Shown: in pieces, positions 1 through 21,494 of the stretch
How positions within the stretch are numbered: the first letter of the stretch is position 1
How the letters are laid out: every line of letters starts with the position of its first letter
Virus record (IMG/VR): IMGVR_UViG_3300045988_034843
Direction: 5' to 3' (one strand)
Source of the DNA: a virus
Taxonomy: Duplodnaviria; Heunggongvirae; Uroviricota; Caudoviricetes
DNA: 25,609 nucleotides
Translations under genes and position numbers: made by a program
The notes under the pieces: generated by a model
Seen by the model: only the letters and a program-made list of their open reading frames with translations
What the model was told of the DNA's origin: nothing
The model's database searches: none

Positions 1-899
1 TAGATGACATTGTCATATACAAACGTTTTATCCTGCGTCCAGGCGTTGTACCACGGTGTATCTGTAATTTTAAATAACTCTCCCTGGATAAAATCTTCAG
101 AAGCATAAAAAAGAGGCTGGCCCGGTATTCTCTCAAATAAAAAACGAGCATTTTTAAATCGACTGACATCCGGAAGAGTTGATACTTTAAAAGTAAGCCC
201 TAATCCGTCAATTTTATAACCTGGAGATGAGGCTTCAAGGCACGCGCTTATTGCAGTGGAATCGTCATTTATACCATCACCAACAGCTCCAAAATCTTTG
301 GGGCTAATAGCATCACGCATTTTATCCTGGAACGTTCGGTACACAGCCCCAGAACCATACTGAATAAACCAACCAAAACCACCAACAACTCCGGCGATTG
401 CAGCATCGACATAATTACGCATTGAGCGATTATTTACAGCGTCCTGCTCAAATGATGGATCTGCAAGGTTAGAAATTTTGTTTTGCTTTGCATCGTAATA
501 TTTTGCAAGCAAAGATGGTTTCATCAATGCACGTCTGAACCACCCAAAACATTGCTGGATCAGCATCGTCAGGTAGTCAAAGGCATCTTCATGCACTTCG
601 GGGAAAAATTTTCCCTGATTGCGAAGGTCTGTGTCCTGCACTACATCAAGCACACGATCTATCGTAATTCGCCATCCAGTAGCAAGCGGAGACGGAAGAA
701 CCACAGAACCGCCACTATAAGTGCCCGCCCCAGTTACCGTATAACCGGTATCCAGGACCAATTCTGTTACGTTCCCGTTCAGGTCAGACACCTGAACAAC
801 CAGGTCTGATTTTCTGAAAATTCGAAAAGTATACGGAAACGATGTCGTAACGCCGTTACCGGTGTATTCGTTGTGGTCAACTTCGGTTGAGACCGTCAT
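1..899 (-). CDS. Tailspike / tail fibre, N-terminal ~299 aa only; gene continues past window start
   Basis: ATG at 899 preceded by GGAGA RBS; own translation of minus strand gives MTVSTEVDHNEYTGNGVTTSFPYTFRIF...DLVVQV (pattern like the T7 gp17 N-terminal tail-attachment domain) followed by DFGAVGDGINDDSTAI, a motif typical of pectate-lyase-fold tailspike depolymerases. Not in the ORF track because no stop lies inside the window. Confidence 0.8.
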   Translation of the reverse strand, partial: MTVSTEVDHNEYTGNGVTTSFPYTFRIFRKSDLVVQVSDLNGNVTELVLDTGYTVTGAGTYSGGSVVLPSPLATGWRITIDRVLDVVQDTDLRNQGKFFPEVHEDAFDYLTMLIQQCFGWFRRALMKPSLLAKYYDAKQNKISNLADPSFEQDAVNNRSMRNYVDAAIAGVVGGFGWFIQYGSGAVYRTFQDKMRDAISPKDFGAVGDGINDDSTAISACLEASSPGYKIDGLGLTFKVSTLPDVSRFKNARFLFERIPGQPLFYASEDFIQGELFKITDTPWYNAWTQDKTFVYDNVI

Positions 900-1004
900 G
901 TTAAATCTCCAGATAGTCGCAGCACCCGTTGCGCCGCATATCTGGTTATTCTATTACCTGAAAAACCATATATGGATAAAAAGACTATAAATACCAATAG
1001 ATAT

Positions 1005-1019
1005 TACCTTTCGGGTAAT
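1005..1019. promoter_or_regulatory. Dyad operator-like site TTACC-TTTCG-GGTAA (copy 1 of 6)
   Basis: Exact 5-bp inverted half-sites with 5-bp spacer, flanked A...T; 76 bp upstream of the ATG at 1095. Confidence 0.6.
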
Positions 1020-1055
1020 TTGCAAAACGTGCTGGATAGCAAACAAATTATTTGT

Positions 1056-1075
1056 TACTGTATAAACATACAGTT
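1056..1075. promoter_or_regulatory. LexA (SOS) box TACTGTATAAACATACAGTT
   Basis: CTGT-N8-ACAG with AT-rich spacer, close match to the E. coli LexA consensus TACTGTATATATATACAGTA; contains TATAAA (-10-like); 20 bp upstream of the ATG at 1095. Confidence 0.7.
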
Positions 1076-1094
1076 ATTGCATGGAGAAGATAAG

Positions 1095-1352
1095 ATGCAG
1101 CAGTATCACTATCCACTGGAAGACGGATTTACCGAAAGGATTCACACGCCGGGAGGCGTCAGGTCACTGGTGGAGGGATCGCACTTGATGAAATTACTCC
1201 GGGATCTCGATAAGGATGGATTTAATGTCGATGGCCCACTTGCCGAACTGACTGCACTGATTAACTACGTCACCAGCTCACAGATGTCTATGCAGGATCT
1301 GCAAACACATCTCGACTATTGTGCCGAACAATTACGAAAACAAACCCGGTAA
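1095..1352 (+). CDS. Small (85 aa) protein paralogous to the C-terminal domain of the Ant-like protein at 2503-3159; putative LexA-controlled antirepressor/induction factor
   Basis: Internal ATG of track ORF 972-1352 with GGAGAAG RBS 7 nt upstream; the 972 start would place the LexA box and dyad inside coding sequence; about 50 percent identity by eye to residues ~150-210 of the 218-aa Ant-like protein (IHTPGGV..LMKLL..DG..V.G..AELT...DLQTH). Confidence 0.6.
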   Translation: MQQYHYPLEDGFTERIHTPGGVRSLVEGSHLMKLLRDLDKDGFNVDGPLAELTALINYVTSSQMSMQDLQTHLDYCAEQLRKQTR

Positions 1353-1359
1353 ATTTAAA

Positions 1360-1375
1360 GGCCGCAAGAGCGGCC
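1360..1375. terminator. Hairpin GGCCGC-AAGA-GCGGCC between convergent genes
   Basis: 6-bp GC stem with 4-nt loop directly after the stop at 1352 and overlapping the minus-gene stop at 1375; T-rich on the minus-strand side. Confidence 0.5.
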
Positions 1376-2103
1376 TATCGTTTCGCTTTGTGCTCGTCCC
1401 AGCACGTTTTGCACCATGCCATTAAGCCATCCGCATTTTGATTATTAGGGTAAAAGCTTGTTCGTTTTCTGCGGACATTACAAATTGGGCACCACTTCAT
1501 ATGGCGTGTATTCTTTGGGCCATCGAGACACCTTGCACACCACTTAGTCAATCCATCTGGATTTTTTGACGATTTCCTGAATTTTTCATATGGTAGGTTT
1601 ATTCTGCATCGCAAGCACTGCTTGCTACCACTTGAAACTCTGTTAGCTGATTCTTCTTTTGGCGGCGATACAGAAGGTATTCTTGCTGGCTCTGATACTG
1701 CCTGAGGTGCTTTTTTAGATGACTGAGACGATATGTCATCACCAGGGAATCTTCCATGATATGCCGGACGCGTTGACACTCCAGGTGGAAGCTCAGCTGT
1801 AAACGGCTTTGGCTGAATCAGTTGCCTCTCTTTTGCTAACTCCTGCTGTTTATAATATGTCTGGATTACCGCACTATCATAAGCAGGAGGTGCGGAAATA
1901 TTAGGCGCATTACCTCCAGTTTTTTGAAACTGAGTAGAGGTGTGTTCTATCACCTGTGTACGATTAATCGTTATCTCCCCATCTTCGGTCTTTATCGTTT
2001 TGTTATGATTAACGACCGTACGATCAGAGATCTTAGTCTTGTTCTGGTTGATAACGTAAATAATCACCGCAACCACACCAACAACTATCCAGAAAACTTC
2101 CAT
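1375..2103 (-). CDS. Membrane-anchored protein with tandem C-x2-C-x22-C-x2-C zinc-ribbon-like repeats (242 aa); function unknown
   Basis: Track ORF; N-terminal hydrophobic helix (VFWIVVGVVAVIIYVI); C-terminus has two repeats CLRC...NPDGLTKWCARC and CPIC...NADGLMAWCKTC; GAGGAAAA RBS upstream of ATG at 2103. Confidence 0.7.
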   Translation of the reverse strand: MEVFWIVVGVVAVIIYVINQNKTKISDRTVVNHNKTIKTEDGEITINRTQVIEHTSTQFQKTGGNAPNISAPPAYDSAVIQTYYKQQELAKERQLIQPKPFTAELPPGVSTRPAYHGRFPGDDISSQSSKKAPQAVSEPARIPSVSPPKEESANRVSSGSKQCLRCRINLPYEKFRKSSKNPDGLTKWCARCLDGPKNTRHMKWCPICNVRRKRTSFYPNNQNADGLMAWCKTCWDEHKAKR

Positions 2104-2123
2104 TGCTTTTCCTCACAATAACA

Positions 2124-2138
2124 TTACCTTAAAGGTAA
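2124..2138. promoter_or_regulatory. Dyad operator-like site TTACC-TTAAA-GGTAA (copy 2)
   Basis: Centre 28 bp upstream of the minus-strand ATG at 2103; overlaps a candidate TTGATC-N17-TACCTT promoter on the minus strand. Confidence 0.6.
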
Positions 2139-2216
2139 TATCTTGCTTTCAGGTGATCAAGCGTTAAACGCAATCAACCAAATACGGTTGATTTTAATAT
2201 TTCTTCGCGTTTATCA

Positions 2217-2231
2217 TTACCTTTGCGGTAA
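2217..2231. promoter_or_regulatory. Dyad operator-like site TTACC-TTTGC-GGTAA (copy 3)
   Basis: Same half-sites and spacing; lies in the 400-bp intergenic region between the divergent genes at 2103 and 2503. Confidence 0.55.
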
Positions 2232-2321
2232 ATTTACATTGCACTCCTCTTGTGCCATAGTAATCGGGCACTGGCAAAATCCAGTGCCGGGATTGGTCTC
2301 CCGGATTACTAAGTGGCGCAT

Positions 2322-2344
2322 ACCACGCCAGACGTGGTTTTTTT
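2322..2344 (+). terminator. Rho-independent terminator-like hairpin in the leader upstream of the Ant-like gene
   Basis: ACCACG-CCAGA-CGTGGT stem-loop followed by TTTTTT(T); preceded by two further hairpins at 2267-2288 and 2287-2304. Confidence 0.5.
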
Positions 2345-2502
2345 ATGCGTATAGCACAGTCATGCCAGAATTATGGTGGGCTGAATGGGGGTCCGAAAGG
2401 ACGCCGGTACCACTTAGGCCGGTAAGACCAACTCCGTTCAGTTCACCACCATCTGATTGGTCTCAGCGGTGGTGATGTAATTCGCTAAGTGGAGACGCCA
2501 TC

Positions 2503-3159
2503 ATGAACGCTCAACTCATCCCCGTATTCAACGGCACTATATCTAACGAAACAGCCCTACTTTGTAATGCCCGCGATCTGCACGCTTTTTTAGGTGTTAA
2601 AAAGGTGTTTGCAGCATGGATTACAAATCGCATATCAGAATACGAATTCATTGAAAATCAAGACTATATTTTGCTTTCCAATTTGGGAAAGCAAACATCT
2701 GGTAGAGGCGGCCACAACCGCAAAGAGTACCACCTCACCCTTGATACAGCCAAAGAGCTGGCGATGGTCGAGCGTAACGAAAAAGGTCGCCAGGTGCGAC
2801 GCTACTTCATTGAATGCGAGAAACGTTTAAGACAACAAGAAACAAAAGTGGAGAAGGTCTTGTCAGGCTTCATGCCCGCCATTATGGAGGCGATCAAGCT
2901 GGAAGACAAAAAAGAATACAGCGCCCCACTGAAGCCCGGCTACCGCAGCCTGATTCACTCGCCGTCTGGTGTTCTCGGCCTGACTGAGAACTCACTGCTG
3001 ATGAATCTGCTGAACCAGTTACAGGAAGACGGGCACGATGTATCTGGCGCGGCGGCGGAGCTGACCACCATGTTCTGCTACATCGTTGGTGTGAGCAAAT
3101 GCCTGCGTGATATCCAGACCCACGCGGAGTACATCAACGACAAGGCAGGGTTCTTCTGA
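2503..3159 (+). CDS. Antirepressor-like protein, AntA-type N-terminal domain (218 aa)
   Basis: Track ORF; GGAGA RBS 7 nt upstream; N-terminus IPVFNG...[10 protein letters not shown]...F..W...RI.EYEF.EN.DY resembles the AntA/AntB antirepressor domain as I recall it; C-terminal third is paralogous to the 85-aa protein at 1095-1352. Confidence 0.7.
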
Positions 3160-3244
3160 CGAGCGGCGGCACATGGATGTGCCTACAATTATCAATAATT
3201 GTTTACACTCGTTGCAGTTAAAAGCATTATACTCATGTTTAAAA

Positions 3245-3259
3245 TTACCCGATTGGTAA
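3245..3259. promoter_or_regulatory. Dyad operator-like site TTACC-CGATT-GGTAA (copy 4)
   Basis: Centre 29 bp upstream of ATG 3281, downstream of a TTATACT -10-like element. Confidence 0.6.
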
Positions 3260-3280
3260 AGTCGATTGGTTGAGGTTCAT

Positions 3281-3607
3281 ATGAGCAGAAGATATGTCAA
3301 GGAGCTGGCTATAGAGTCTGGCACCCCTTTGGGTATCGTTCCTGGCTCCAACTATGCCAAGGCTTTAAACCGAGACTCTGTCGTCAAAGTTATATCAAGA
3401 GACATGAATATGGTCGGAGACGATCTCAGACGGTCAGAAAATCGTGTTTATGCTGAATATATAGTAAAGAACGGAAAAAAAATTGCAGCGCCTGCTGGCG
3501 GAAAATGGGCAATAGTGACAGGGAAAAACTCAAATGCAAGAGGAAAACCAGAAGCTAAAGGAATGTCCTTCGACAAATATGCAAAAATCTATTGGGCAAC
3601 CAAGTGA
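3281..3607 (+). CDS. Hypothetical protein (108 aa)
   Basis: ATG 3281 with GAGG 7 nt upstream (track ORF 3266-3607 trimmed to this ATG); AT-rich, lysine-rich; no motif I recognise. Confidence 0.55.
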   Translation: MSRRYVKELAIESGTPLGIVPGSNYAKALNRDSVVKVISRDMNMVGDDLRRSENRVYAEYIVKNGKKIAAPAGGKWAIVTGKNSNARGKPEAKGMSFDKYAKIYWATK

Positions 3608-4082
3608 TAACGAAGAAACTGAGTTCGAGGAAGTTGAGGAAGGGCTAAGTAACGAGATCATTCAACACCCAGATGCCTTCACAAGAGTTCTTGATCGCCC
3701 TGAAATTCAGGAGATAGTTGTCGCTCACCATGCGTTTCAGGGGCCGCTTCCTCCCCCCTATCTGCTTCGCGGGTATCAGGATATTTTACCTGATGCCCCC
3801 GAACGCATCTTCCAGTTGACGGAGAAGGAGTTTGCTCACCGCCAGAAAATGGAGGAAAAGGCACTTGACGGGGCTATTAATAGAGATAAACGTGGGCAGT
3901 GGTTTGGCCTGAGTGCAACTATTTTTACAGTAGCTTGTGCAACATTATTAGGTTTAACAGGTCATGAAGTTCTAGCTGGCACAGTGATCGGTACAGTTGT
4001 TGCAGTGGCTGGTATTTTCGTTCTTAGACAAAAACCAAGCATCAAGAAGAAATCTGAAGACAACAAACCTGAAGAAAAGTAA
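3534..4082 (+). CDS. Membrane protein with two C-terminal TM helices, possibly DUF2335-like (182 aa; alternative start 3579 gives 167 aa)
   Basis: Track ORF; overlaps the 3' end of the previous gene in another frame; conserved-looking stretch PLPPPYLLRGYQDILPDAPERIF...HRQ then hydrophobic segments FGLSATIFTVACATLLGL and VIGTVVAVAGIFVL; followed immediately by a terminator. Confidence 0.6.
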   Translation: MQEENQKLKECPSTNMQKSIGQPSDNEETEFEEVEEGLSNEIIQHPDAFTRVLDRPEIQEIVVAHHAFQGPLPPPYLLRGYQDILPDAPERIFQLTEKEFAHRQKMEEKALDGAINRDKRGQWFGLSATIFTVACATLLGLTGHEVLAGTVIGTVVAVAGIFVLRQKPSIKKKSEDNKPEEK

Positions 4083-4103
4083 GCCCGCGCTGCGGGCTTT
4101 TTT
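4082..4103 (+). terminator. Rho-independent terminator AGCCCGC-GCT-GCGGGCT + T6
   Basis: 7-bp GC-rich stem, 3-nt loop, T-run 4098-4103, directly after the stop at 4080-4082. Confidence 0.75.
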
Positions 4104-4175
4104 GTGGACGAAACAAAAGTCAGTGCTACACTCATTGACGCCACATTGAGGTGGCTTATAGATGGAAATTTCACA

Positions 4176-4337
4176 ATGAAAAAAGCATTTGCTGCACTGT
4201 TCGTTTTGTTGTCTCTGGTAGCTTCAACTCAGGCCTTTGCCGGTCGTTGTCAGCACGACAGCGACACTGCTGCTGACGGCTCCCGCTGCGGTGGGCGTTC
4301 TGCGGATTCCCGCCCGGGTGGCGGTGGCATTCGTTAA
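4176..4337 (+). CDS. Small predicted secreted peptide (53 aa) with N-terminal signal sequence
   Basis: Internal ATG of track ORF 4104-4337; MKKAFAALFVLLSLVASTQAFA looks like a Sec signal peptide with AFA cleavage motif; mature part Cys/Gly/Asp-rich; weak RBS. Confidence 0.4.
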   Translation: MKKAFAALFVLLSLVASTQAFAGRCQHDSDTAADGSRCGGRSADSRPGGGGIR

Positions 4338-4342
4338 AAACA

Positions 4343-4358
4343 AGGCCGCGAAAGCGGC
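4343..4358. terminator. Hairpin GGCCGC-GAAA-GCGGCC shared by convergent genes
   Basis: 6-bp GC stem with GAAA loop; the minus-strand reading is followed by TTGTTTTT, so it most plausibly terminates the minus-strand lipoprotein gene. Confidence 0.55.
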
Positions 4359-4360
4359 CT

Positions 4361-4372
4361 GTGACATGTCAC
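4361..4372. repeat. 12-bp perfect palindrome GTGACATGTCAC (copy 1 of 3)
   Basis: Exact palindrome abutting the hairpin at 4343-4358; overlaps the stop codon of the lipoprotein gene. Confidence 0.6.
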
Positions 4373-4749
4373 GCAACGCAATTATTACCGCGCCATGTAA
4401 CATTTTTAATAATCTTATCAGCACCAAACTCAACGTAAACAGAGCAACTGAAATGGAGTGTATAACCGCCATCAGTTGTTGCGTATGTGTTTGAATATAT
4501 AGTATTACCAATTAGATTAGACGTAGTATTATACGTTGTGGTTTGTGGTACGTTATAACTACCAGAGCTTGAGTAAACATACACTCTGTTTCCATCTGGA
4601 GATGTAAGCTCTCCCTGAGGATACCCCCACTGCTGAACCATTGCGTCTATACTCTGCCCGCGCCACGTAAGCATATTTCTTTCAAACTGTGCAGCTGACT
4701 GGCATCCAACGAGAAGCATAAATCCAAAAATCAAAAATACTTTTCTCAT
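4369..4749 (-). CDS. Putative lipoprotein (126 aa)
   Basis: Internal ATG of track ORF 4369-4785 with AGGGG RBS; MRKVFLIFGFMLLVGCQSA has a lipobox (LVGC); mature part Thr/Ser/Tyr/Asn-rich. Confidence 0.7.
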   Translation of the reverse strand: MRKVFLIFGFMLLVGCQSAAQFERNMLTWRGQSIDAMVQQWGYPQGELTSPDGNRVYVYSSSGSYNVPQTTTYNTTSNLIGNTIYSNTYATTDGGYTLHFSCSVYVEFGADKIIKNVTWRGNNCVA

Positions 4750-4834
4750 AATTACCCCTATCATGGAAAAACAGCACCAATCCACAAATTAACTAGTTAT
4801 TTTATTATTCTTCCGAACAATACAATTCCGAATA

Positions 4835-4960: not shown

Positions 4961-4968
4961 ATCTCCTT

Positions 4969-7443
4969 TTATTGCGGAGTGACATCCTGTGGTCGCCACC
5001 AGTATGTCTGGTTAAACTCTTTCTTCGAACGTTGCTCCATTTTACGCAAATAGCCTGGTGAAAAATACTCCTGCATCTGGTTAAAGATCATGTGATCGAG
5101 AGCCGCCTTCAAGTACCAGAGATTCGCACCAGGCATCAAACCTTTCCCCAGCTTCACCAGATCACCACCAGTCTGCTCACTCTTCCCTTCCACAGCATTT
5201 AACGGTATGCCCTGAGCAATCTTCACTACGTCATCAACCAGACCAGCTACCGGGCCAAGCATCGACGCCAGCGCGCCGCTTCCGTACCTAGTGTGATCTG
5301 ACAATAAAAAGTCACCGTAAAGGCCAAGACCACCACCTTTCAGTAGAGCACCAAGCCAGAATTTTGCGGCATCTTCTCCTGTCATCTCTCGAGGATTACG
5401 ACCAGACGCAAGGTCGTTAAGTTGCTGCGACAAAGCGCCAAGAATGGTCGTACTGGCAATAAACGTCGCAATATATGCCGCACGCCCACCAGCAGACGGC
5501 ATACCCATAGCGCGTGACCAGTGACGCATAACAACCGAGATAGGGAACGATTTAAACAGGAAAACACTTCTCGTTAATTCACCTTTCCATGTTCCACGCT
5601 GAATACCAGAACCGGTTATCAGTTGCTCACGTGCTCCCGGTGTAATAACAGCCATATCAACTTCTTCAGTTACGGCACCGAGCAGTTTACGCATTGCCTC
5701 AAATTTCACGCGTTCAGGCTCACCAAGATGTTTAACTGCTGAATCAGGGATACGCATAATGCTTTCCGGTGTCAGCATCGTATTATTACCGTTCCCCCAG
5801 TCCTCCTGTTTCGCCAGCTTCCATACGCTCCAGTCTGTGTCAGTAATCCCTTTGCTTTTCAGGATACGAAAATCAGAGTCATCGAGGCTACGAAGGTCTG
5901 GTGTCCGTGACACTACTTCTCCCAGGCTTCCCATCATGGTTACGCCATAGGCGCGCTTGTGCGCATCTGACCATGCTGTAAGCCCACTGGCACGCATTAC
6001 CGCCGTTGCCGCCCAACGAGACACTGACGGCCCCATATTATCCATCGCCCAGCGGTTAACGCTGCCAAGTAGAGATTCCATCGCCAGACCAGCGCGGCGC
6101 GCCCGCGCAAGTTCTGTACGGTTCGTTGGGTCCATAGCTTCAAGCTGGTTGCGGAATAACTGGTTCATTGGAAGGTTGGTAACCTTCGCAGACAGATACA
6201 TGGTTCCAAGATCAGAGAACGATGACAGCAACGCGGATCCGAGTCTGCTGGCAACCAGCCAGTTGCGGATATTGTCAGACCATCGCGCGATGTGCGGATT
6301 CGCTACAGGCTGTGTCTTTCCGGAAATAAAGTTGTACAGATTCTCTGTGTTGTTCGCCAGCCGCTCGACTTTACCGGTTTTACTCGGGTTAGCTGTTGCC
6401 GTTTCTGCCTTCACCTGATCAAGAAGAGAGCGGAAAACATGATCGGGGTTTGGGCCATATGTTTCCACCAGTGCAATATCTTTACTGATACCTTCCAGGT
6501 GACCGACCATGATTTCCCATAGAGAGCGATCGCCATAAAGTTGCTGATATTGCAGATAGGAATCTGCATCTTTGAAATGTATCTGTCGTGATGCATTACC
6601 ACGGTTAGCACGTGCGCCGGAAATTCGCATTCCGGTATCAGTAAGCTTATTCAGCCCACCAGTAGCGATCGTGTTATAAGCCTCTCCAAGAAATGAAGAC
6701 AACTCGGCATCGTTCATCAGTTGTCCATCGGCTCGGATATAATATTTGCGATCCAGCTTACCTATAACATCGCTAACCCACTTATCCTTTGATACTGCCC
6801 CAACCTTTTCCATAGAATGATGTTGAGGGATCCCCCAGTTTTCGAGATAGCCAATGTCCCCACCAGCATCATTAAACCGGCGGCGCAGCAGCTCTGTAAC
6901 TTCTCTCCACGCCTTAGCACCGTTTCTTGCTTTAGCATTGCCAGTATTTTGCCCCCGCATTTCATATACCAGGTCACGTACGCCCGCTTCATCTTCAAAC
7001 AGACCAAAAAAGCGAGGATCAACTGCTTCGAATGCCTCCTGCAATTGACTCAATGCATAATCACGGGTGGCTTTTGTTCTGGATTCAACAGAGAGGAAAT
7101 TAGATTTACCGTCTGCATTAAAAGCTATAGTACGGTTAAGAGCGCCAAGTTTCCCATCAGCCCCTTGATAGCTATTGATAAATTTATCCAATCTCTGACG
7201 CGCGGCTATAGTGAGAGCCACACGACGTTTCTTTAATGCCGCTTCTCGCTGTAATTCTTCAGATGCCAATTGTGCTGCTCGATATAGCCGCTCTGATTCG
7301 GAAAGTTGTCGCCACGACATAGGGTCATCACGAGCAATGGAGCGCATATTTCGATAAATGCGGTCTTCAATGTTCTGTATTTCTCGCGCCGTTAACATGC
7401 GCTGCGCCGCCTGCTGAACCGCTTGTATACATTCCTGTCTCAT
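4969..7443 (-). CDS. Large internal virion / DNA-ejection protein (824 aa), gp16-like by position
   Basis: Track ORF; last gene of the structural operon before the accessory island; size and position consistent with a podovirus ejection protein. Confidence 0.6.
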   Translation of the reverse strand: MRQECIQAVQQAAQRMLTAREIQNIEDRIYRNMRSIARDDPMSWRQLSESERLYRAAQLASEELQREAALKKRRVALTIAARQRLDKFINSYQGADGKLGALNRTIAFNADGKSNFLSVESRTKATRDYALSQLQEAFEAVDPRFFGLFEDEAGVRDLVYEMRGQNTGNAKARNGAKAWREVTELLRRRFNDAGGDIGYLENWGIPQHHSMEKVGAVSKDKWVSDVIGKLDRKYYIRADGQLMNDAELSSFLGEAYNTIATGGLNKLTDTGMRISGARANRGNASRQIHFKDADSYLQYQQLYGDRSLWEIMVGHLEGISKDIALVETYGPNPDHVFRSLLDQVKAETATANPSKTGKVERLANNTENLYNFISGKTQPVANPHIARWSDNIRNWLVASRLGSALLSSFSDLGTMYLSAKVTNLPMNQLFRNQLEAMDPTNRTELARARRAGLAMESLLGSVNRWAMDNMGPSVSRWAATAVMRASGLTAWSDAHKRAYGVTMMGSLGEVVSRTPDLRSLDDSDFRILKSKGITDTDWSVWKLAKQEDWGNGNNTMLTPESIMRIPDSAVKHLGEPERVKFEAMRKLLGAVTEEVDMAVITPGAREQLITGSGIQRGTWKGELTRSVFLFKSFPISVVMRHWSRAMGMPSAGGRAAYIATFIASTTILGALSQQLNDLASGRNPREMTGEDAAKFWLGALLKGGGLGLYGDFLLSDHTRYGSGALASMLGPVAGLVDDVVKIAQGIPLNAVEGKSEQTGGDLVKLGKGLMPGANLWYLKAALDHMIFNQMQEYFSPGYLRKMEQRSKKEFNQTYWWRPQDVTPQ

Positions 7444-7448
7444 TTAAT

Positions 7449-9251
7449 TTAACCTCTCAAGAAACACGCCACAGCGACATCAAACAGGCTGGAATCCTGT
7501 ATTGCCTGCTCACTTTCCCTGTTCGCTTCATCCAGTGCTTCACGCGCACTGCGCGATTGTGGATTACCATCATCATCCAGCACGGTGATTATCATGTCCG
7601 GAGATTCAAGCAGCGAGTCTTCAGCTATACGCAGATCAATATCTCCTGCCGGATCTGCCATCATTTTTTGTTCTGTCTGTTGCAATATCTTACCGGGCTC
7701 AAAAGGAGCTACTTCGTCTGGCGTCCTGACCTCTGCTGTTTTATAGAATGAAACAGCCTGAGTATTAAGTTCACTTTCAGCCTGCTGTCTCCGTGCCAGT
7801 TCTGCTCGAGCTTCAAAAAACTGACCGCCAGGCTCATGCGGTGCCAACGCGTTACGAGAAAATTCCAGGCGTTCTTGTGCCTGCCGGATTCGTTGGTCAA
7901 TATCGCGAAGTCTGGCCTGTTTATCTGATCGAGCACGAGATAAAGCCTTACCGCTACCGGCTGGATCTTCTGCAAGAATTTGTGCGCGCTGTTCAGTGAG
8001 ATTTTCAATAATTCGTTGGCTATTAGCGATTTCAGACTGGTAAACCTGTCTATCGCCACGCGGCAAAAGCTGCGCGGCCTGTTCTTCAAGCAACCGATTT
8101 TCTATAGCGCGCGCCGTTACTCCATCATCTACAGATGACAGAGCCTCATTAACTGCCTGAGACAGCAGACTCTTGCGTCCAGGAATTTCACTGAAAGATG
8201 CAGACTCAACAATGCTGGCAACGTCTACAGGTCTCCCCTGGCTAACATCAGACATGGCTTTTCGCAGAGCCTGAATGTGCGAATTACGCGAAAGCACGTT
8301 GATCGGCACGCCGGGAGCAATATCAATTTCAGCATGATGAGCGGCATTCGCCGCCAGTGCAGCATCGATATCAACTGGTGAAAAATTTGGTGCGCTTGTA
8401 GACTCGCCGCGAGAGTTAATAAATCTGCCGACACCACCAAACGCCACCCCAAGAACAGCATCAATAGCAATTGCCTGTCGATCCAACACATCATACTGGT
8501 TAGCCATTTCGCTATAGCCACCATCACGAAGCGTTTTTGCAGTAAGCCCACGCTGTGCCATACCGAACGCAATATTTGTACCTGCGGCATAGGCAATATC
8601 TGGCGTTGCACGTACTGCTGTTGCTGCGGCGCGTCGCACTGAACTTTCACCCGTCCGCGCAAGCTGAGCCGCCACACCTTCCGCCAGCGCACCACCAGCA
8701 CGTAACCCGAGGCTCATAGGGATCAGTGTTCCGGCACCAGCAGTAATACCCTGCACTAATCCCGCTTCCTGCGCCGTCCTGAAATCAACACCCTGTGCTG
8801 TCAGCCGTTCAAACTCAGAAAAACCCTGTAGAGAAGTTACCGCCGCAGCACCTCCGACCGGACCACCGAGCGTTGTACCGACAACAGCCTGCCCGCCCAT
8901 ATCGAACAACCCATAAAGAACCTGCCCGGCGGTTCCGGTTGTCGCGGCATCAGGCGTCAGCCGCTTAACCTGCTGTTCTGCTAGTTTTCTCTGCTCGGCA
9001 ATGTATGAAACTGAAGTATCATTGAGCGAGGTGTTTTCGTTAATAAACTGAGCAATCGGGGATACGATTTTATCCATCCCTGCCCATAGCAACTGATCTG
9101 GCTTTGCCACCAGCCCGGAGTACAAACCAGACAATGCCGCTCCTACAGCATTGTCGAAAAAACCAACATCGCTGTTAAAGCCCGCTGGATTTGATGCTGC
9201 TTCGTCAAGCTGCTGATTCTGGTTTACTGGATTAAGGCCAAAGTAACTCAT
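7449..9251 (-). CDS. Internal virion / ejection protein (600 aa)
   Basis: Track ORF; Ala/Gly-rich, start overlaps the upstream stop (translational coupling). Confidence 0.6.
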   Translation of the reverse strand: MSYFGLNPVNQNQQLDEAASNPAGFNSDVGFFDNAVGAALSGLYSGLVAKPDQLLWAGMDKIVSPIAQFINENTSLNDTSVSYIAEQRKLAEQQVKRLTPDAATTGTAGQVLYGLFDMGGQAVVGTTLGGPVGGAAAVTSLQGFSEFERLTAQGVDFRTAQEAGLVQGITAGAGTLIPMSLGLRAGGALAEGVAAQLARTGESSVRRAAATAVRATPDIAYAAGTNIAFGMAQRGLTAKTLRDGGYSEMANQYDVLDRQAIAIDAVLGVAFGGVGRFINSRGESTSAPNFSPVDIDAALAANAAHHAEIDIAPGVPINVLSRNSHIQALRKAMSDVSQGRPVDVASIVESASFSEIPGRKSLLSQAVNEALSSVDDGVTARAIENRLLEEQAAQLLPRGDRQVYQSEIANSQRIIENLTEQRAQILAEDPAGSGKALSRARSDKQARLRDIDQRIRQAQERLEFSRNALAPHEPGGQFFEARAELARRQQAESELNTQAVSFYKTAEVRTPDEVAPFEPGKILQQTEQKMMADPAGDIDLRIAEDSLLESPDMIITVLDDDGNPQSRSAREALDEANRESEQAIQDSSLFDVAVACFLRG

Positions 9252-15241: not shown

Positions 15242-15846
15242 CAGGACAACCTCGCAATGGTAAACTCGTCAACCGGTGGCTGTGGTTCCTGTGATTCATT
15301 CTGGCTATGCGAGCCAGCACTAAGAATCACGCGATTGTACATATTGAGGGCAAACGTACCGAGGTCTGCATTCCCAGTCAGCGCCATGTTAATAGCTGCC
15401 GCAAGACGCCAGGCCAACGCCTCCATAAAAATGGCATCAAACATGTTCACATCTGTAACGCGAGAGACATACTTGAGCCATGCCTGAGGCTGGTCTGTGT
15501 AGATCAACTTTCCTGTTCCGTTGGTGTCTGCACCAACTTCGTACTGAACGCGCATTGCTGCTGTTGGATTGCGTACACCAGGAAGCATAATTTCAGTAAT
15601 GCGCAGACAATCTGACGGGTACTGGTACGCATATTCCCAGTCAGGCGGTGGATTGCTCGTATCTGCAAGCGCCACGCGTTTGGTAGCAAAGTTCCAGTCA
15701 AAATCAGAAAGCACAGTATCACGGCAGGCCTCAAAGTGCAGCGAACATTCCCCCGCTTCCTTGCTGGCTTCCGTCAGGCTGTTAATGCTGCGGCTGTTGC
15801 CAATATTGGACAGCGCACGATTACAGATCTCTACTACAGAGGCCAT
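15241..15846 (-). CDS. Tail tubular protein A-like (adaptor), gp11-like (201 aa)
   Basis: ATG at 15846 (track ORF begins at a GTG one codon upstream); N-terminus MASVVEICNRALSNIG resembles T7 gp11 (..VNDILASIG..) as I recall it; GGAGGTGA RBS. Confidence 0.55.
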   Translation of the reverse strand: MASVVEICNRALSNIGNSRSINSLTEASKEAGECSLHFEACRDTVLSDFDWNFATKRVALADTSNPPPDWEYAYQYPSDCLRITEIMLPGVRNPTAAMRVQYEVGADTNGTGKLIYTDQPQAWLKYVSRVTDVNMFDAIFMEALAWRLAAAINMALTGNADLGTFALNMYNRVILSAGSHSQNESQEPQPPVDEFTIARLS

Positions 15847-16169
15847 CACTCACCTCCGTTACCGTACAGAGTTTCAGCCGCTGATTTTTCTACATCCCCG
15901 GAAACAGGAGCGATCGCCATATCAGTGATCTGCAGATCGGCGCTGCGATTAACGCCATCGTCAGTTTCTCTGGCAGACAGGCCTCGAATAACAGCCTTTG
16001 CAGTTATCATCACTTCCGTTCCGACGCCCTTAGGTTGCGCCTTCAGCTTATTCAATGTGTCGTTATTCAGCGTGATGCACAGCCCCCACGGGTATTCATC
16101 GCGAGTTCTGGTTTCTCCGCTCTCATCCTGGTAGCTGTCAGTGCCGGTTTTGAGGTTTACGAGTTCCAT
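15846..16169 (-). CDS. Small structural protein (107 aa), possible head-tail connector component
   Basis: ATG at 16169 with GGAG RBS (track ORF 15846-16175 starts at an upstream GTG); first gene after the intercistronic terminator. Confidence 0.5.
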   Translation of the reverse strand: MELVNLKTGTDSYQDESGETRTRDEYPWGLCITLNNDTLNKLKAQPKGVGTEVMITAKAVIRGLSARETDDGVNRSADLQITDMAIAPVSGDVEKSAAETLYGNGGE

Positions 16170-16187
16170 ATACACTCCTGCAATAAA

Positions 16188-16201
16188 GGGGCCGAAGCCC
16201 C
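16188..16201 (-). terminator. Intercistronic terminator-like hairpin GGGGC-TTCG-GCCCC + TTTATTG (minus-strand reading)
   Basis: GC stem with tetraloop followed by a T-rich tract on the minus strand, between the stop at 16220 and the next start at 16169. Confidence 0.5.
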
Positions 16202-16219
16202 TTGTCTGATCCGCGAGGC

Positions 16220-16555
16220 TTACACGCCCAGTTCTTTACGCTTATCTGCGATCTTCTCGCGGAGCGTTTCGGCTTTGGCGTTATGGTGTGGCTTCTCGTT
16301 AAAGAGCAATTCGTACTCTTCACGGAGCTTATCCAGTTCACCATCATCTGACACATCGTTGATGATTTTGGTGCTGGTTGCTGCCATTGACACCTTTCCT
16401 GCAACTTTTGCTTTTGCCTGTCTGGCTGCATCGTTAACAGGTTCCAGTGCGCTACCAGGCTCACCTTCGTATTCGATTTCTGCCCCCTCCGGCCACAGAG
16501 TGTTATGGATATGAGAGAGGCGCAGAACGCGGTATCTTGGTTTCTCACCTGACAT
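16220..16555 (-). CDS. Small head-associated protein (111 aa), unknown function
   Basis: ATG at 16555 with AAGGTGA RBS directly after the upstream stop (track ORF 16220-16564). Confidence 0.5.
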   Translation of the reverse strand: MSGEKPRYRVLRLSHIHNTLWPEGAEIEYEGEPGSALEPVNDAARQAKAKVAGKVSMAATSTKIINDVSDDGELDKLREEYELLFNEKPHHNAKAETLREKIADKRKELGV

Positions 16556-16565
16556 CAATATCACC

Positions 16566-17003
16566 TTAACCAGTTACTTTTGAGCGGATCGGATACGGCG
16601 TATTGGCATCAACATCAAGATTGATACCCGCAGTGAATTTGCCAGCCGTTAGTGGGCCAGTTGCGACGGAGTAGTTAACACGCAGATATCGCTGAACACC
16701 GGCTGGCACCTTTGCAGAAACAACTCGCTTACCTGCTGTCAGGGTGGCCTTTGCCAGTGCGCCACTATCATAAATAGTGGACCATGAGCTGTTATTATCA
16801 CTCGTCTGCAACTGGATGTTTACAGTTGCCTCACCACTTGCCGTGGCGGCTTCGTTAACCAGCACCCAAAACTCAAGCGGATAACCCACGCCGATATCGC
16901 GACGGTTTCCATCAATTGGACCGAGATCGATTACGTCAGTAGAAGCCGCGGTATTCGTAACCGCCTGAGCTTCGGAGAACATCAACAGTTTGTCGGTGAT
17001 CAT
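16566..17003 (-). CDS. Putative head decoration / capsid accessory protein (145 aa)
   Basis: Track ORF; GGAGA RBS; immediately downstream of the major capsid gene; Thr/Ala/Gly-rich. Confidence 0.45.
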   Translation of the reverse strand: MITDKLLMFSEAQAVTNTAASTDVIDLGPIDGNRRDIGVGYPLEFWVLVNEAATASGEATVNIQLQTSDNNSSWSTIYDSGALAKATLTAGKRVVSAKVPAGVQRYLRVNYSVATGPLTAGKFTAGINLDVDANTPYPIRSKVTG

Positions 17004-17054
17004 CTTCTTTCTCCATTAGTGGGCCTGTTGCGGCCCACAGGTTAATAACAGGCG

Positions 17055-18047
17055 TTACACCACGCGGGCTTCTGTTTCCAGAAGTGCGTCAGTTTCGCGA
17101 ATCGGCACACCACGAATTTCTGTCCACCATTCGCCTTCTGTCTCTTTCACGCTGATCGCCAGAGAACTCTTCTCCAGAGATTGCAGGTCAAGCACTTCGT
17201 TAATGGTTCTGTTCATGTAGAAAATAGGACGTCCCATCCCACGATTTGGGATTCGATGAAGGGCACGAATCATCAGTTTTGCGATATTCGCAGCAGTAGA
17301 AGGAGCGTCAAGATTGCTGACATCGATGTTTGCAATGCGAACAACATAGCGCCAGTCACGCAATGTCAGCCCGTTGTCCCACTTATAATGGGTACGATAA
17401 CCTTCGTACTTGCCGCCATTAGCATCTTCCAGTGTCACCTGGCCTTTATCTTCCATCTGGATGCCAGCCTTCTGCCCTTTCGGGAAGATGCCATGCACGG
17501 TGTTTTCGCCCCACACCACTAACCAGATTGAAGTGTTATCTGTACCCGTGCCACCAGCATCAATGATGTTCTGAGCATTACCCGCAGACAGGCTGGAATA
17601 GCGGGAGGACAGTCCCATAAACTGCTGAGGGTTAACGCTGGAATCACCGTAAAACAGCGTCTGCGCCATCGCCTGATTCATCGCTTCAATAAATGCTCGG
17701 TCTTCAGACAGGCGGAATTCGGCAGTATTACCGTTCAGATCAGCCAGAGACTTATCGACTTCAGCATAGGTTTCCAGCATGCCAATGGAATCAGTGACCT
17801 GCACCGTTGTTGATTTGCTCGGTTGTACGCCATAGTTCAGCAAACGCCAAGTAGCGGAAGGCAAACCAGAACGAATGGTGGTTCGGTGTCCGGTAGGAAG
17901 GTTTCCTTCAACAAAAGGCATATCCTGAAGGATTGGGTTGGTTTGACTGAGAAGCTCGATAATCTTATCGACTTTCCCGTTTGGATCGACGCGCTTACCC
18001 CAGTCAGCCAGCGTTAGCGCAGTTAAGCCTTTAACAGCCATTGTCAT
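17055..18047 (-). CDS. Major capsid protein (330 aa; start may be the second ATG at 18041)
   Basis: Track ORF; directly downstream of an acidic scaffold-like gene and upstream of the decoration-like genes; size typical for podovirus capsid proteins; GAGAGGAA RBS. Confidence 0.6.
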   Translation of the reverse strand: MTMAVKGLTALTLADWGKRVDPNGKVDKIIELLSQTNPILQDMPFVEGNLPTGHRTTIRSGLPSATWRLLNYGVQPSKSTTVQVTDSIGMLETYAEVDKSLADLNGNTAEFRLSEDRAFIEAMNQAMAQTLFYGDSSVNPQQFMGLSSRYSSLSAGNAQNIIDAGGTGTDNTSIWLVVWGENTVHGIFPKGQKAGIQMEDKGQVTLEDANGGKYEGYRTHYKWDNGLTLRDWRYVVRIANIDVSNLDAPSTAANIAKLMIRALHRIPNRGMGRPIFYMNRTINEVLDLQSLEKSSLAISVKETEGEWWTEIRGVPIRETDALLETEARVV

Positions 18048-18055
18048 TTCCTCTC

Positions 18056-18751
18056 TTATTTTCCATAGAGCACTTCGGCCGCACTACGCTGGCCTTCATT
18101 ACCACCGGTGACCATGCCATCTTCAGACATCGCCTTTCCGATTTTCACGAACGTTTTGACCAGATCAGGGTGATTACCCAGCCCGGTGGTGTTCAGATAT
18201 TCTTTGAGTTCAGGTGTCCCGAACTGGTCAAGCGCACGCTGTGCGGCGCTAAGGTTAGAAATCAACTTGTCGCCACCGATTTCTTTGTCAGCTTTTACAT
18301 CCGCAGCCCACTGCTCGGTTGTTTTCTGCCAGGCTTCTGCCTGGCGCTGCTGAACACCTGCCAGAATCTTCGGATAAGCATCAACCAGCTTTTGCGCTTG
18401 CTCGTTGGTCAGGTTTAGTTCTCGCGCCACCGGCTCGAACTCCTTCAACGCTTCTGTATCCAGCTCTACGCCTTCGGCAGCCTGAAACTCGTACTTTTCA
18501 GGCGCACCCTCTGGTTTATCGCCGTCCTTTTTTTCATCCTGCTTATCGTTTTCAGGCTTTTTGTCATCAGCAGGTTTATCGCCATCAGCAACAGGTTGTG
18601 GCTTATCACCTTCCTGTTGTGATGGATCACCAACTGGAGCAGGGTTATCACCTGCAGGCGCTGACGGTTCTGACGCAGCCGGAGCTGCTCCACCATCGAC
18701 TGGTTGCTCATTGCAAAGACGGCGATACAGCAAACGCTCAAATAAATTCAT
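18056..18751 (-). CDS. Scaffolding-like protein (231 aa)
   Basis: ATG at 18751 (track ORF 18056-18757); strongly acidic, Pro/Ala/Asp/Lys-rich low-complexity N-terminal half; position between portal and capsid. Confidence 0.55.
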   Translation of the reverse strand: MNLFERLLYRRLCNEQPVDGGAAPAASEPSAPAGDNPAPVGDPSQQEGDKPQPVADGDKPADDKKPENDKQDEKKDGDKPEGAPEKYEFQAAEGVELDTEALKEFEPVARELNLTNEQAQKLVDAYPKILAGVQQRQAEAWQKTTEQWAADVKADKEIGGDKLISNLSAAQRALDQFGTPELKEYLNTTGLGNHPDLVKTFVKIGKAMSEDGMVTGGNEGQRSAAEVLYGK

Positions 18752-18753
18752 GA

Positions 18754-19050
18754 TCACTCCTGTTCACTGGCCTCTTTGGCCATCTTCAAATACTGTTCAG
18801 GGCAATGCGCCATAACGCGCTGAAACAGTTCCAGCGCCAGATTGCGTTGCCCCTCATTAAATGCCATTGCCATAGCGTCCATCGGTGAGATAGCGGAAAA
18901 CACACGGCCTTTCTCCAGCACCGACCAGACAACGCGACGCCCCTGTTCACTGCTCATGACAAAGCAAATGTCATCAATTTCACGCTGTGCCATGTCACGT
19001 TGCTTACGGGCGTTTTCTTCTTTCAGTTGATCGTCTTCGTAATCTGTCAT
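18754..19050 (-). CDS. Hypothetical protein (98 aa)
   Basis: Track ORF; ATGA overlap with the portal stop; charged, no motif recognised. Confidence 0.5.
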   Translation of the reverse strand: MTDYEDDQLKEENARKQRDMAQREIDDICFVMSSEQGRRVVWSVLEKGRVFSAISPMDAMAMAFNEGQRNLALELFQRVMAHCPEQYLKMAKEASEQE

Positions 19051-20726
19051 TGTGATTGCCCACCCTGACCACTAACTGCATTCGCCATAGCTGACAAAAC
19101 ACTCGGATCCGAAGTTTTAGCTTCGCTTAGCGTCTTGGCACCCTGTGCCGCCGCCATCCCCATCGCCATCATTTGTTGCTGCTGTTGTTGCTGTGCCCGT
19201 TGCTGGCGAGCCTGCTCAACCTGTTCCTGCGGAACAATGACGGTTGGAGACACTCCGGACATATCAGCGAATGCATCGATCGCCTGATCAACGTTGAGTT
19301 TGTCGAGAGCTTCTGGTTTCGCTTGCGCAAGTTGACCAATGAAGTTGACCGTAGACACCAGACTGGACAGGCCGATAGACTTCTGCGCCTGAGCCATGAC
19401 GGAAATGTATTCGACCTTCAGGGGCATACCTTCCATCGCGTCAGGCGGTGGCGGCAGCATGTTTTTACGCACCATCATCGAGAAAGCGCGGTCAATGAGA
19501 GGATTAAGACATTCGTCGTTCAGACGCTCCAGAACCGGCCCCAACATCAGAAGTTTTTCTTCTTTCATTTCGATCACCGCTTCAACAGGCATCGAGCGGG
19601 TATTGATGTTCTGCAACATCATGAACAGATCGACAAAGTAGGCGCTGTTAATGATTTGACGGGTGTCCTGAATGTCTGCCACCAAATCTGCTGTACTGGG
19701 GTTAACCAGATAAGCAGGCCTGAAACCATCCTGACCAGTAATCTGATCGATATACGTGATGTCGCCAGGAAGAAGGGAGGCACGCTGATTCTTGAGGGAA
19801 GTCGGAGCAACCATCGGCGGATTGGTGGCTTTATCAATCAACTGCGACTTGCGCTTCTGGAGAAGCTGCAATGCCTTAACAGGTCCAAGCGCCAGCATAC
19901 CCGGGCATGATGATCCATAAACATCTTCGCCGTTAACTTCCCAGCGCGGAGCCATAATTGGAAACTCATCGAATCCGGACTCACGCAACAACTTGTCGTT
20001 ATCGCCACCAACCTCGTAATAAACCGATTTGAATGGCTTGTTCTTGCTATCCAGCTTCGATGTATCGCGGTCAATGTTCGGGTAAACCGAATGCATCACT
20101 TCAATCCACTTCTCGTAGGTTCCGCTTTCCCACATGCTTTTTACGGATTCGCTGACGTTATTTAGCCCGAACTCCTGAACAAGCTGACGAACAGTCATAG
20201 AGAACTTGCGAAAACAGGTGTCCACACTGCCACGAGGTGAGTTAGCCAGGTAGTAACTGCCTATCGGGAATGGCATTGTGCGAATGATGTCCTCGTCATC
20301 CTCCAGCACTGCCATTGCACCAGTGCTGTATGTGCCGAGGCTTCCGTATAACTGCGGCAGCGACTGATAGAGATTCGACTTATTGAACATATCGTTCATG
20401 CGGTTCTGCACCGCCTCAAGCCACAACTTAACAGGGCCATAATCCATCATTTCAGGATCTGGCGTAGCCAGGCGAAACCACGGACGCGCGGGGCTTGTGA
20501 TGCCTGACATCATGCCGCTGGCGAGAGTGCGCGCCGCCATAGTCCCGGTCGAATCAATAATGCGTGTATTGCGTCGATCGTTACGGTTAACCTCAGAAGT
20601 CAGAAAGCGGGAACCACGCGGGTTGATGTAATCACTCAACTCGCGCCAGTGCGGCTCGAACGACTGACGCTCGCTTTCAAGTTGTGCGAACTGTTTGTTC
20701 AATCGCTCTTTAGTTGTTTCCGCCAT
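19047..20726 (-). CDS. Portal protein (559 aa)
   Basis: Track ORF; position between terminase and scaffold/capsid, size appropriate; Gln-rich C-terminal tail; GGAGTCATTGAAATG initiation region. Confidence 0.6.
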   Translation of the reverse strand: MAETTKERLNKQFAQLESERQSFEPHWRELSDYINPRGSRFLTSEVNRNDRRNTRIIDSTGTMAARTLASGMMSGITSPARPWFRLATPDPEMMDYGPVKLWLEAVQNRMNDMFNKSNLYQSLPQLYGSLGTYSTGAMAVLEDDEDIIRTMPFPIGSYYLANSPRGSVDTCFRKFSMTVRQLVQEFGLNNVSESVKSMWESGTYEKWIEVMHSVYPNIDRDTSKLDSKNKPFKSVYYEVGGDNDKLLRESGFDEFPIMAPRWEVNGEDVYGSSCPGMLALGPVKALQLLQKRKSQLIDKATNPPMVAPTSLKNQRASLLPGDITYIDQITGQDGFRPAYLVNPSTADLVADIQDTRQIINSAYFVDLFMMLQNINTRSMPVEAVIEMKEEKLLMLGPVLERLNDECLNPLIDRAFSMMVRKNMLPPPPDAMEGMPLKVEYISVMAQAQKSIGLSSLVSTVNFIGQLAQAKPEALDKLNVDQAIDAFADMSGVSPTVIVPQEQVEQARQQRAQQQQQQQMMAMGMAAAQGAKTLSEAKTSDPSVLSAMANAVSGQGGQSQ

Positions 20727-21451: not shown

Positions 21452-21494
21452 GAATCACGCCTAAGGACCGTGATGCCAGAAGTTCCAGGGGCTT

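Follow-up and report, generated by a model that had tools for sequence, protein, structure and literature searches.

Salmonella phage epsilon15 (NC_004775) is the type member of the epsilon15/phiV10 group of temperate podophages, and its capsid, portal, core and tailspikes have been described by cryo-electron microscopy (cryo-EM). The nearest relatives of the DNA considered here are phiV10 (NC_007804), phiv142-3, vB_EcoP_ZX5, PAS61, HEMP4 and O157 typing phages 9/10, which are 97-98% identical to it in nucleotides over the virion block and have the same gene order and the same open reading frame (ORF) lengths of 201, 823, 154, 181, 837, 600 and 824 amino acids (aa). In phage T7, genes 8-17 follow the same order of portal, scaffold, capsid, adaptor, nozzle, gp13, gp14, large internal proteins and fibre. 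The closest solved structures are those of Carin-1 of Cobetia marina (8CK1) and LME-1 of Legionella (9EFK), the latter with orf17 and orf18 as weaker kin; both phages differ from the present one in host and receptor-binding protein. PMC12407071 describes the portal, adaptor, nozzle and fibre-proximal domain of LME-1 as resembling those of T7 and the tails of Carin-1 and LME-1 as T7-like, and PMC11440229 gives the internal proteins as unresolved in these structures. The subject of this report is the virion block carried by a stretch of 25,609 nucleotides (nt) of IMG/VR virus record IMGVR_UViG_3300045988_034843, referred to below, at its full length, as the window.

The comparison of the window with the annotated phages showed that its virion block is an already known and ordinary one of the epsilon15/phiV10 type, and that an earlier note, which had read the block from the letters of the sequence as T7-like, was right in its main points. 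The region very probably represents the late (virion) operon, on the minus strand, of a phiV10/epsilon15-type temperate podophage (genus Uetakevirus) of E. coli, this identity being assessed on the 25.6 kb of the window and not on a whole genome. Megablast aligned 80-86% of the window, at about 97% identity, with phiv142-3, HEMP4, O157 typing phages 9/10, PAS61, ZX5 and phiV10, and its conserved parts with epsilon15 at about 77%. Its proteins are 97-100% identical to those of phiV10, and the annotated records of phiV10 and epsilon15 match the window one-to-one by gene order. In E. coli SY033, guaA and yfgI flank a complete, nearly identical prophage. It carries a tyrosine integrase and a lysis cassette, and its endosialidase tailspike is 1039 aa long. 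The search for an integrase and attachment site suggested in the earlier note thus found both in this relative; the window itself ends short of the integrase. The features of the window's virion block and its flanks are, in order of transcription:

24923-25501, DUF551 protein
24306-24722, minus, small regulator, between the DUF551 gene and TerS
23588-24265, minus, TerS, 225 aa from TTG (Pfam Terminase_2, E 3e-29)
22116-23591, minus, TerL, 491 aa (PHROG 2 'terminase large subunit', E 1e-52)
19047-20726, minus, portal, 559 aa (Pfam Head-tail_con, PF12236, E 3e-187)
18754-19050, minus, Bbp19-like protein, 98 aa (Pfam Phage_Bbp19, E 7e-17)
18056-18757, minus, scaffold or 'protease'-annotated head assembly protein, 233 aa (PHROG 458, E 2e-111)
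17055-18047, minus, major capsid protein, 330 aa (Pfam GP7, the epsilon15 capsid family, E 1e-148)
16566-17003, minus, Bbp16-family capsid cement protein, 145 aa (Pfam Bbp16, E 2e-49)
16220-16564, minus, 114-aa protein equivalent to phiV10 gp12 and epsilon15 gp9 (PHROG 590, E 4e-61; position kept in relatives)
15846-16175, minus, epsilon15 gp10-like capsid decoration protein, 109 aa (Pfam Gp10-like, E 7e-52)
15241-15846, minus, predicted tail adaptor, 201 aa from ATG (202 aa from GTG at 15849)
12770-15241, minus, putative tail nozzle, gp12-like, 823 aa
12306-12770, minus, gp13-like internal virion/assembly protein, 154 aa (PHROG 308, E 9e-63)
11761-12306, minus, gp14-like ejection protein, 181 aa (Pfam T7_gp14)
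9248-11761, minus, predicted internal virion protein, 837 aa from ATG (862-aa ORF from GTG)
7449-9251, minus, virion protein, presumed ejection/core, 600 aa (PHROG 1145)
4969-7443, minus, all-alpha virion protein, presumed ejection, 824 aa
4835-4960, minus, hydrophobic ORF of 41 codons at the position of phiV10 gp21 'putative integral membrane protein'
4369-4785, minus, putative lipoprotein, 138 aa from GTG, lipobox LLVGC (PHROG 3716, hydropathy)
3-899, minus, tailspike, first 299 codons, cut by the window start

The ORFs and sizes listed in the earlier note proved real, with coordinates as computed, and all ORFs of the virion block read on the minus strand. The two terminase genes do precede the portal in transcription order, as was claimed; they lie at 22116-24265, outside the range of 1-20726 to which that claim had been attached.

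The kinship with T7 begins at the head vertex. The portal matches PHROG 449, the family of T7 gp8, and T7 gp8 in turn matches PHROG 332, to which the portal of the window belongs; judged by these reciprocal profile matches and by Pfam Head-tail_con, which is the gp8 family, the portal is a member of the T7 gp8 family. The 201-aa protein matches the 'Connector Protein' of Carin-1 (PDB 8ck1_E, phmmer E 4e-26), and hhalign gave no signal when its profile was compared with T7 gp11 alone. An AlphaFold2 (AF2) model was built from a 60-sequence alignment, with a predicted local distance difference test score (pLDDT) of 86.4. In Foldseek it matched 8CK1 at E 7.7e-17 (template modelling (TM) score 0.86), LME-1 9EFK at 7e-9, and T7 gp11 itself in 7BOX (E 5.5e-7, TM about 0.6), in 6R21 and 7EY7 (E about 1e-5) and also in 8E4G. 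The adaptors of KP32 (tail tubular protein A), PhiM1, HRP29, Kp7/Kp9, A4 and P-SCSP1u were matched as well, all with a probability of 1.00. The link of the adaptor to gp11 therefore comes from the AF2 model and Foldseek, the sequence profile alone being silent, and by its modelled fold the 201-aa protein is a tail adaptor of the T7 gp11 type. The RefSeq note on epsilon15 gp11 likewise cites an HHpred match to T7 tail tubular protein A.

For the 823-aa protein, described as gp12-like in the earlier note, the support is moderate. It matches the 'Tail Nozzle' of Carin-1 (PDB 8ck1_A) at E 5e-217 with about 50% identity, and 9efk_M of LME-1 at E 9e-16. A six-phage profile of the nozzle aligned by hhalign with T7 gp12 at a probability of 78.5% and E 1.7e-5 over 110 of about 800 columns, and its relatives are annotated as 'tail tube B'; these matches argue moderately for a gp12-like nozzle. 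The 154-aa protein had been given no name in the earlier note. A gp13-like identity for it is supported by T7 gp13, which matches PHROG 308 at E 1e-42 over the same profile positions as the protein of the window. The 181-aa protein was called gp14-like, and it scores above the cut-off of Pfam T7_gp14 (E 2.5e-7, 31.2 bits against 27) over aa 1-160; the RefSeq name of its orthologue is 'virion core protein, T7 gp14 family', and hhalign against the T7 gp14 sequence alone gave a weak probability of 12%. At E <= 0.01 Pfam gave no match for the 201-, 823-, 154-, 837-, 600- and 824-aa proteins, and NCBIfam gave none for the seven tail and core proteins, nor for T7 gp11, gp12 and gp15. The protein-level search against T7-like virion proteins that the earlier note had proposed thus returned kin for the portal, adaptor, gp13 and gp14 and probable kin for the fibre anchor.

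This last element is the N-terminal part of the tailspike. The tailspike at aa 1-166 and T7 gp17 at aa 5-200 match the same region of PHROGs 1640, 2710, 27277 and 8460, and these shared profiles support an anchor of the epsilon15/T7-gp17 type at aa 1 to about 166. A BLASTP comparison with T7 gp17 shows just the short motif '...NLA..DAV'. From about aa 195 the anchor gives way to the K1 endosialidase (Pfam End_N_terminal 1e-32, End_beta_propel 2e-11), with the endosialidase N-terminal extension and then the start of the beta-propeller (aa 205-299). The first 330 nt of the window, within the start of the endosialidase tailspike, are 100% identical to vB_EcoP_ZX5, and over its first 201 nt it matches the endosialidase of CUS-3, a P22-like prophage, at 98.5%; the similarity to phiv142-3 ends at window position 318. 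The matches to ZX5 and CUS-3 indicate that the receptor-binding module has been exchanged between unrelated podophage lineages. In phiV10, in contrast to the window, an O157-specific tailspike and an O-acetyltransferase are found instead of the endosialidase.

The shared features of T7 and the window thus comprise, at the profile or fold level, the portal family, the adaptor fold, the gp13 PHROG, the gp14 Pfam family and probably the fibre anchor, together with a presumed internal protein that carries a cell-wall hydrolase domain. The window differs from T7 in having three large proteins and not two, a terminase that lies upstream with a small subunit of the Terminase_2 type, extra capsid decoration proteins, a temperate lifestyle, and tailspikes rather than fibres for receptor binding. 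The statement that the T7 gene 11-17 block is mirrored in the window accordingly holds for the adaptor, gp13 and gp14 and probably for the nozzle and the anchor; it is unsupported as to homology to gp15 and gp16 and as to the number of large core proteins. An upstream portal, which had been counted as a departure from T7, is none, gene 8 being upstream in T7 too.

The earlier note had also called the module a mosaic, and in its strong form this would mean a recent recombinant in which a T7-like tail and core cassette was set on an unrelated head and packaging module. That the terminase genes lie at the opposite end compared with T7 speaks for such an origin. So does the bimodal identity to epsilon15 (TerL 94%, portal 81%, adaptor 84% and nozzle 88% against capsid 43%, gp16 30% and gp17 28%), which points to exchange within the family. 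However, the portal itself is assigned to the T7 gp8 family, the genes from portal to fibre run in the order of T7 genes 8-17, and no protein shows BLAST-level identity to T7. Such boundaries of exchange as exist lie within the head, at the capsid and decoration genes, and at gp15-gp17; none separates head from tail. The order TerS, TerL, portal, Bbp19, scaffold, capsid, Bbp16, adaptor, nozzle, gp13, gp14, hydrolase protein, large protein(s) and fibre is common to epsilon15, BPP-1, BcepC6B, Pseudomonas AF, Xanthomonas CP2 and Pelagibacter phage Skadi-3. The terminase-first arrangement therefore occurs in phages of Salmonella, Bordetella, Burkholderia, Pseudomonas, Xanthomonas and Pelagibacter, and because it recurs across these six host groups it represents an old, conserved architecture of the lineage and not a recent one. 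A recent assembly of the module is accordingly very improbable, and the word mosaic does not suit an arrangement conserved from epsilon15, BPP-1, BcepC6B, AF and CP2 to the Pelagibacter phages. The synteny comparison proposed in the same place gave a gene-for-gene match in phiV10 and epsilon15 and the same order in the other phages named. The terminase-first order is usual in tailed phages, T7 being the exception.

Within this conserved order, gene content has nevertheless been replaced inside the genus. Besides the values given above, the identities to epsilon15 are 38% for Bbp16, 42% for gp10, 78% for gp14 and 59% for gp15, so that the capsid/decoration cassette is 38-43% identical and gp16/gp17 28-30%. 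The capsid protein shares 62-63% identity with its BPP-1 and BcepC6B counterparts, against 43% with epsilon15 gp7. Since the identity to epsilon15 is bimodal and the capsid is closer to BPP-1 and BcepC6B, it may be concluded from the compared sequences that cassette replacement has occurred within the genus. BPP-1, BcepC6B and AF have a homologous portal, Bbp19, capsid, Bbp16, adaptor, nozzle, gp14 and hydrolase protein; in BPP-1, AF and CP2, in contrast to the window, a single giant protein (about 2050-2260 aa or more) takes the place of the 600/824-aa pair. The fibres differ across the group, that of BPP-1 being Mtd. T7 names (tail tube A/B, internal virion protein A/B) are already used in the annotations of several relatives.

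The gp10-like gene has no tblastn match in the SY033 prophage, which is otherwise 98-100% identical, and about 400 nt lie between the Bbp16 and adaptor genes there (23176-23579). The decoration protein may be dispensable, or the SY033 prophage may be defective.

A different assignment would place the tail and ejection proteins with those of P22 (gp4/gp10/gp26 and gp7/gp20/gp16), and this would have overturned the comparison with T7. It has some support in the literature: Table 1 of PMC8954989 lists for 'Epsilon 15' the ejection proteins gp11, gp12 and gp13 with 229, 499 and 708 aa, clustered with P22. The sizes in NC_004775.2 disagree with that table (gp14 180, gp15 842, gp16 634 and gp17 918 aa). 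P22 gp4, gp10, gp14, gp7, gp20, gp16 and portal fall in PHROGs 637, 578, 651, 598, 917, 770 and 156, and no protein of the window matches any of them; the portal is of the Head-tail_con and not the P22 type, and the adaptor model matches adaptors of the T7 type. A P22-type assignment, which the earlier note had named as the finding that would speak against it, is therefore as good as discounted.

As to the table itself, the sizes given for 'Epsilon 15' equal or resemble the P22 gp7/gp20/gp16 class, and the RefSeq record of epsilon15 has the adaptor (201 aa) as gp11 and the nozzle (825 aa) as gp12, with gp14-gp17 as the candidate ejection proteins; the entry seems to describe a P22-like phage.

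The three large proteins were compared with T7 separately. In the first of them, residues 249-398 match the N-terminal domain of Gp29 (9vvp_L, a chain of 1295 aa) at E 6e-38 by phmmer and the endolysin 7q47 at E 3e-17, and in relatives from other phages this position is taken by an SLT lytic transglycosylase domain. Judged by this domain content, the 837-aa product is probably a wall-degrading internal protein with a swappable enzymatic module, in keeping with the 'mosaically modular' nature ascribed to ejection proteins in PMC8954989. Its hydrolase domain is central (aa about 249-398) and of another family, unlike the SLT domain of T7 gp16, which stands at the N-terminus of the largest protein; the protein showed no similarity to the T7 gp15 profile, and in hhalign the family profiles of the 837- and 600-aa proteins gave no signal with those of gp15 and gp16.

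The 600-aa protein matches PHROG 1145, is only 30% identical to epsilon15 gp16 and is moderately hydrophobic in the Gly/Ala-rich stretches aa 123-141, 163-183 and 255-279; profile and hhalign searches gave no similarity to Pfam, PDB, T7 gp15 or gp16. Its orthologue in SY033 (30204-32006) is named 'AAA family ATPase' in RefSeq. Pfam, NCBIfam and PHROG show no ATPase signal, and the name looks like an annotation artefact.

The 824-aa family comprises 5133 clusters at 50% identity, and some members form the C-terminal part of proteins of 2000-2900 aa. A 60-sequence profile found nothing among PDB sequences, and the profile search of PDB sequences with the 837- and 824-aa families gave SLT domains and noise only. 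The AF2 model of the 824-aa protein is all helical (pLDDT 75.5), and in Foldseek the T7 core chain 9jyy_I was the single outstanding match (E 0.019, probability 0.97, but TM only 0.24/0.18), the next having a probability of <=0.18. In hhalign the probability was 10% with the T7 gp16 sequence by itself and 29% (E 6e-4) with a gp16 profile built from four phages, aa 305-419 aligning with gp16 793-901 in both cases. These results form a weak but consistent hint, which is no demonstration, that the 824-aa protein may be distantly related to the C-terminal portion of gp16. A homologue of T7 gp15 was sought with profiles of the 837-, 600- and 824-aa proteins against T7 gp15 or a four-phage gp15 profile, and the probability was <=0.1%.

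Several results weigh against a T7-like tail and core. The Pfam model of the T7 tail-fibre N-terminus has no match to the tailspike at E <= 0.01, the BLASTP comparisons with T7 gp13 and gp17 were not significant, and none of the three large proteins has significant sequence similarity to T7 gp15. As cited in PMC12391199, genetic work places epsilon15 gp15 and gp17/16 in a tail 'packaging/injection device' and not in an internal core.

On this last ground the three proteins could instead be external parts of a tail hub or tail tube: amber-mutant work led to the proposal that gp15 and gp17 of epsilon15 form a central tail tube, gp16 being needed to attach gp17, and Guichard et al. 2013, as cited in PMC12391199, listed gp4, gp20, gp15 and gp17/16 as components of the packaging/injection device of the epsilon15 tail. 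The missing homology to T7 gp15 is in favour of this location. A tail tube is, however, already accounted for by the adaptor and nozzle homologues, as in the solved tails of Carin-1 and LME-1 (PMC12407071), and the genes of the large proteins follow the gp14-like gene, where ejection proteins are encoded in T7, phiKMV, SP6 and P-SSP7. Moreover, the 837-aa protein has a cell-wall hydrolase domain such as is found on ejection proteins, and the structure that best matches the 824-aa model is a T7 core protein chain. According to PMC8954989, epsilon15 has a stacked core and ejects proteins from inside the head; cryo-EM of the core and of a post-infection tunnel is cited there. An external location is thus unlikely, and the tail-tube and core views may describe one set of proteins before and after ejection.

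Under the ejection interpretation it is tempting to speculate that the 837/600/824 trio forms a distinct and very widespread podophage ejectosome and not a simple copy of gp15/gp16, although we hold this only tentatively and rate it below an even chance. In such an arrangement, and with the same reserve for its parts taken jointly, the 824-aa family would be distantly related to the C-terminal two-thirds of gp16, the hydrolase would have been shifted onto a first subunit of its own, the 600-aa protein with its hydrophobic Gly/Ala-rich segments would lack a counterpart in T7, and the last two proteins would be fused elsewhere into giants of at least 2000 aa. If true, it would be new only in the structural and mechanistic reading, the PHROG 684/1145/992 family being already catalogued and present in epsilon15.

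The operon as a whole would build a T=7-type head from the capsid protein and the Bbp16-type and gp10-type decoration proteins. One vertex would hold a dodecameric portal of the T7 gp8 family, on which a dodecameric adaptor of gp11 fold and a hexameric gp12-like nozzle would dock to give a short tail; these oligomeric states are taken over from the solved tails of Carin-1, LME-1 and T7. Six trimeric tailspikes would be attached at the junction of adaptor and nozzle through the gp17-type N-terminal anchor, the distal part acting as a K1 polysialic-acid endosialidase. The gp13-like, gp14-like, 837-, 600- and 824-aa proteins would be packaged in the head and, on infection, would leave through the nozzle and bridge the outer membrane, cell wall and inner membrane. 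For the gp14-like and the three large proteins, storage in the head and ejection are suggested by gene position, the hydrolase domain, the published cryo-EM of epsilon15 and the analogy with T7.

Stop/start overlaps would couple translation along the tail/ejection block. The overlaps reported in the earlier note were confirmed: overlaps of 1 nt (TGATG/TAATG) join the 109-aa gp10-like gene and the 201-, 823-, 154-, 181- and 837-aa genes in succession, the 837/600 junction has a 4-nt ATGA overlap, and a gap of 5 nt separates the 600- and 824-aa genes. They may be read as signatures of translational coupling along this block. A 4-nt GTGA overlap was also found between TerS and TerL, and an ATGA overlap between the portal and Bbp19 genes.

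TerL is 94% identical to epsilon15 gp2 and 99% to phiV10 gp2, and a bidirectional terminator-like hairpin follows it at 22093-22112. The scaffold gene lies between the portal and capsid genes, as do phiV10 gp9 and epsilon15 gp6. The putative lipoprotein gene is the last one before a second terminator-like hairpin at 4343-4360. Promoter and terminator scans of the window gave numbers of sites not above those of shuffled sequences.

The temperate features mentioned in the earlier note, namely a LexA box, antirepressors and a DUF551 gene, were confirmed, the antirepressor being of the AntA type. The near-consensus LexA box CTGTATAAACATACAG is located at 1058-1073, and the window holds three CTGT-N8-ACAG matches against 0.37 expected. 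An 85-aa ORF at 1095-1352 on the plus strand has its ATG 22 nt downstream of the box (taCTGTATAAACATACAGtt); this homologue of phiV10 gp24 and epsilon15 gp19 resembles in sequence the C-terminal ~85 aa of the AntA antirepressor and is a candidate for an SOS-induced small antirepressor. The start at 1095 is preferred because a 126-aa ORF from 972 would span the LexA box. An antirepressor of the AntA type is encoded at 2503-3159, and just upstream of it Rfam places the isrK Hfq-binding small RNA at 2268-2344 (67.7 bits) and the C4 antisense RNA at 2369-2453 (61.2 bits), both on the plus strand. This order of isrK/C4 and antirepressor resembles the c4-ant arrangement of the P1/P7 immI type. A 110-aa ORF from TTG at 2143-2475 is probably spurious, since the isrK and C4 RNAs occupy its stretch. 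A 242-aa ORF at 1375-2103 on the minus strand has an N-terminal hydrophobic helix, four CxxC pairs in the C-terminal third and a weak match to Pfam Stc1 below threshold; it belongs to the variable moron region and has the tailspike on one side and the antirepressor on the other.

This moron region, which separates the 824-aa gene from the tailspike (about 900-4800 of the window), varies among isolates, as seen from gaps in coverage. Between the TerL and portal genes there is a tRNA-Arg(UCU) gene at 21375-21451 (ARAGORN; Rfam 73 bits), which is read from the plus strand and so opposite to the virion genes; an 83-aa ORF overlapping it at 21381-21632 on the minus strand is probably spurious. A weaker CTGT-N8-ACAG site at 21567-21582 is found about 70 nt upstream of a plus-strand 140-aa ORF at 21650-22072. 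The marks of lysogeny in the window (LexA box, antirepressor and C4/isrK RNAs) and the terminase upstream of the portal are unlike the Autographiviridae, the family of T7, which are strictly lytic, have an RNA polymerase of their own and the terminase after the fibre, and lack lysogeny functions; close relatives of the window carry an integrase.

The T7-likeness of the tail genes is already public, in the note on epsilon15 gp11, the RefSeq name 'T7 gp14 family' and the names 'tail tube A/B', and the structural papers on Carin-1 and LME-1 likewise describe T7-like tails. The large downstream proteins, whose roles are presumed ones, belong to a very common phage group. The data presented here can serve as a clean annotation of the window, with a predicted adaptor, a putative nozzle, gp13-like and gp14-like proteins, a presumed ejection protein bearing a hydrolase domain, and a K1 endosialidase tailspike.

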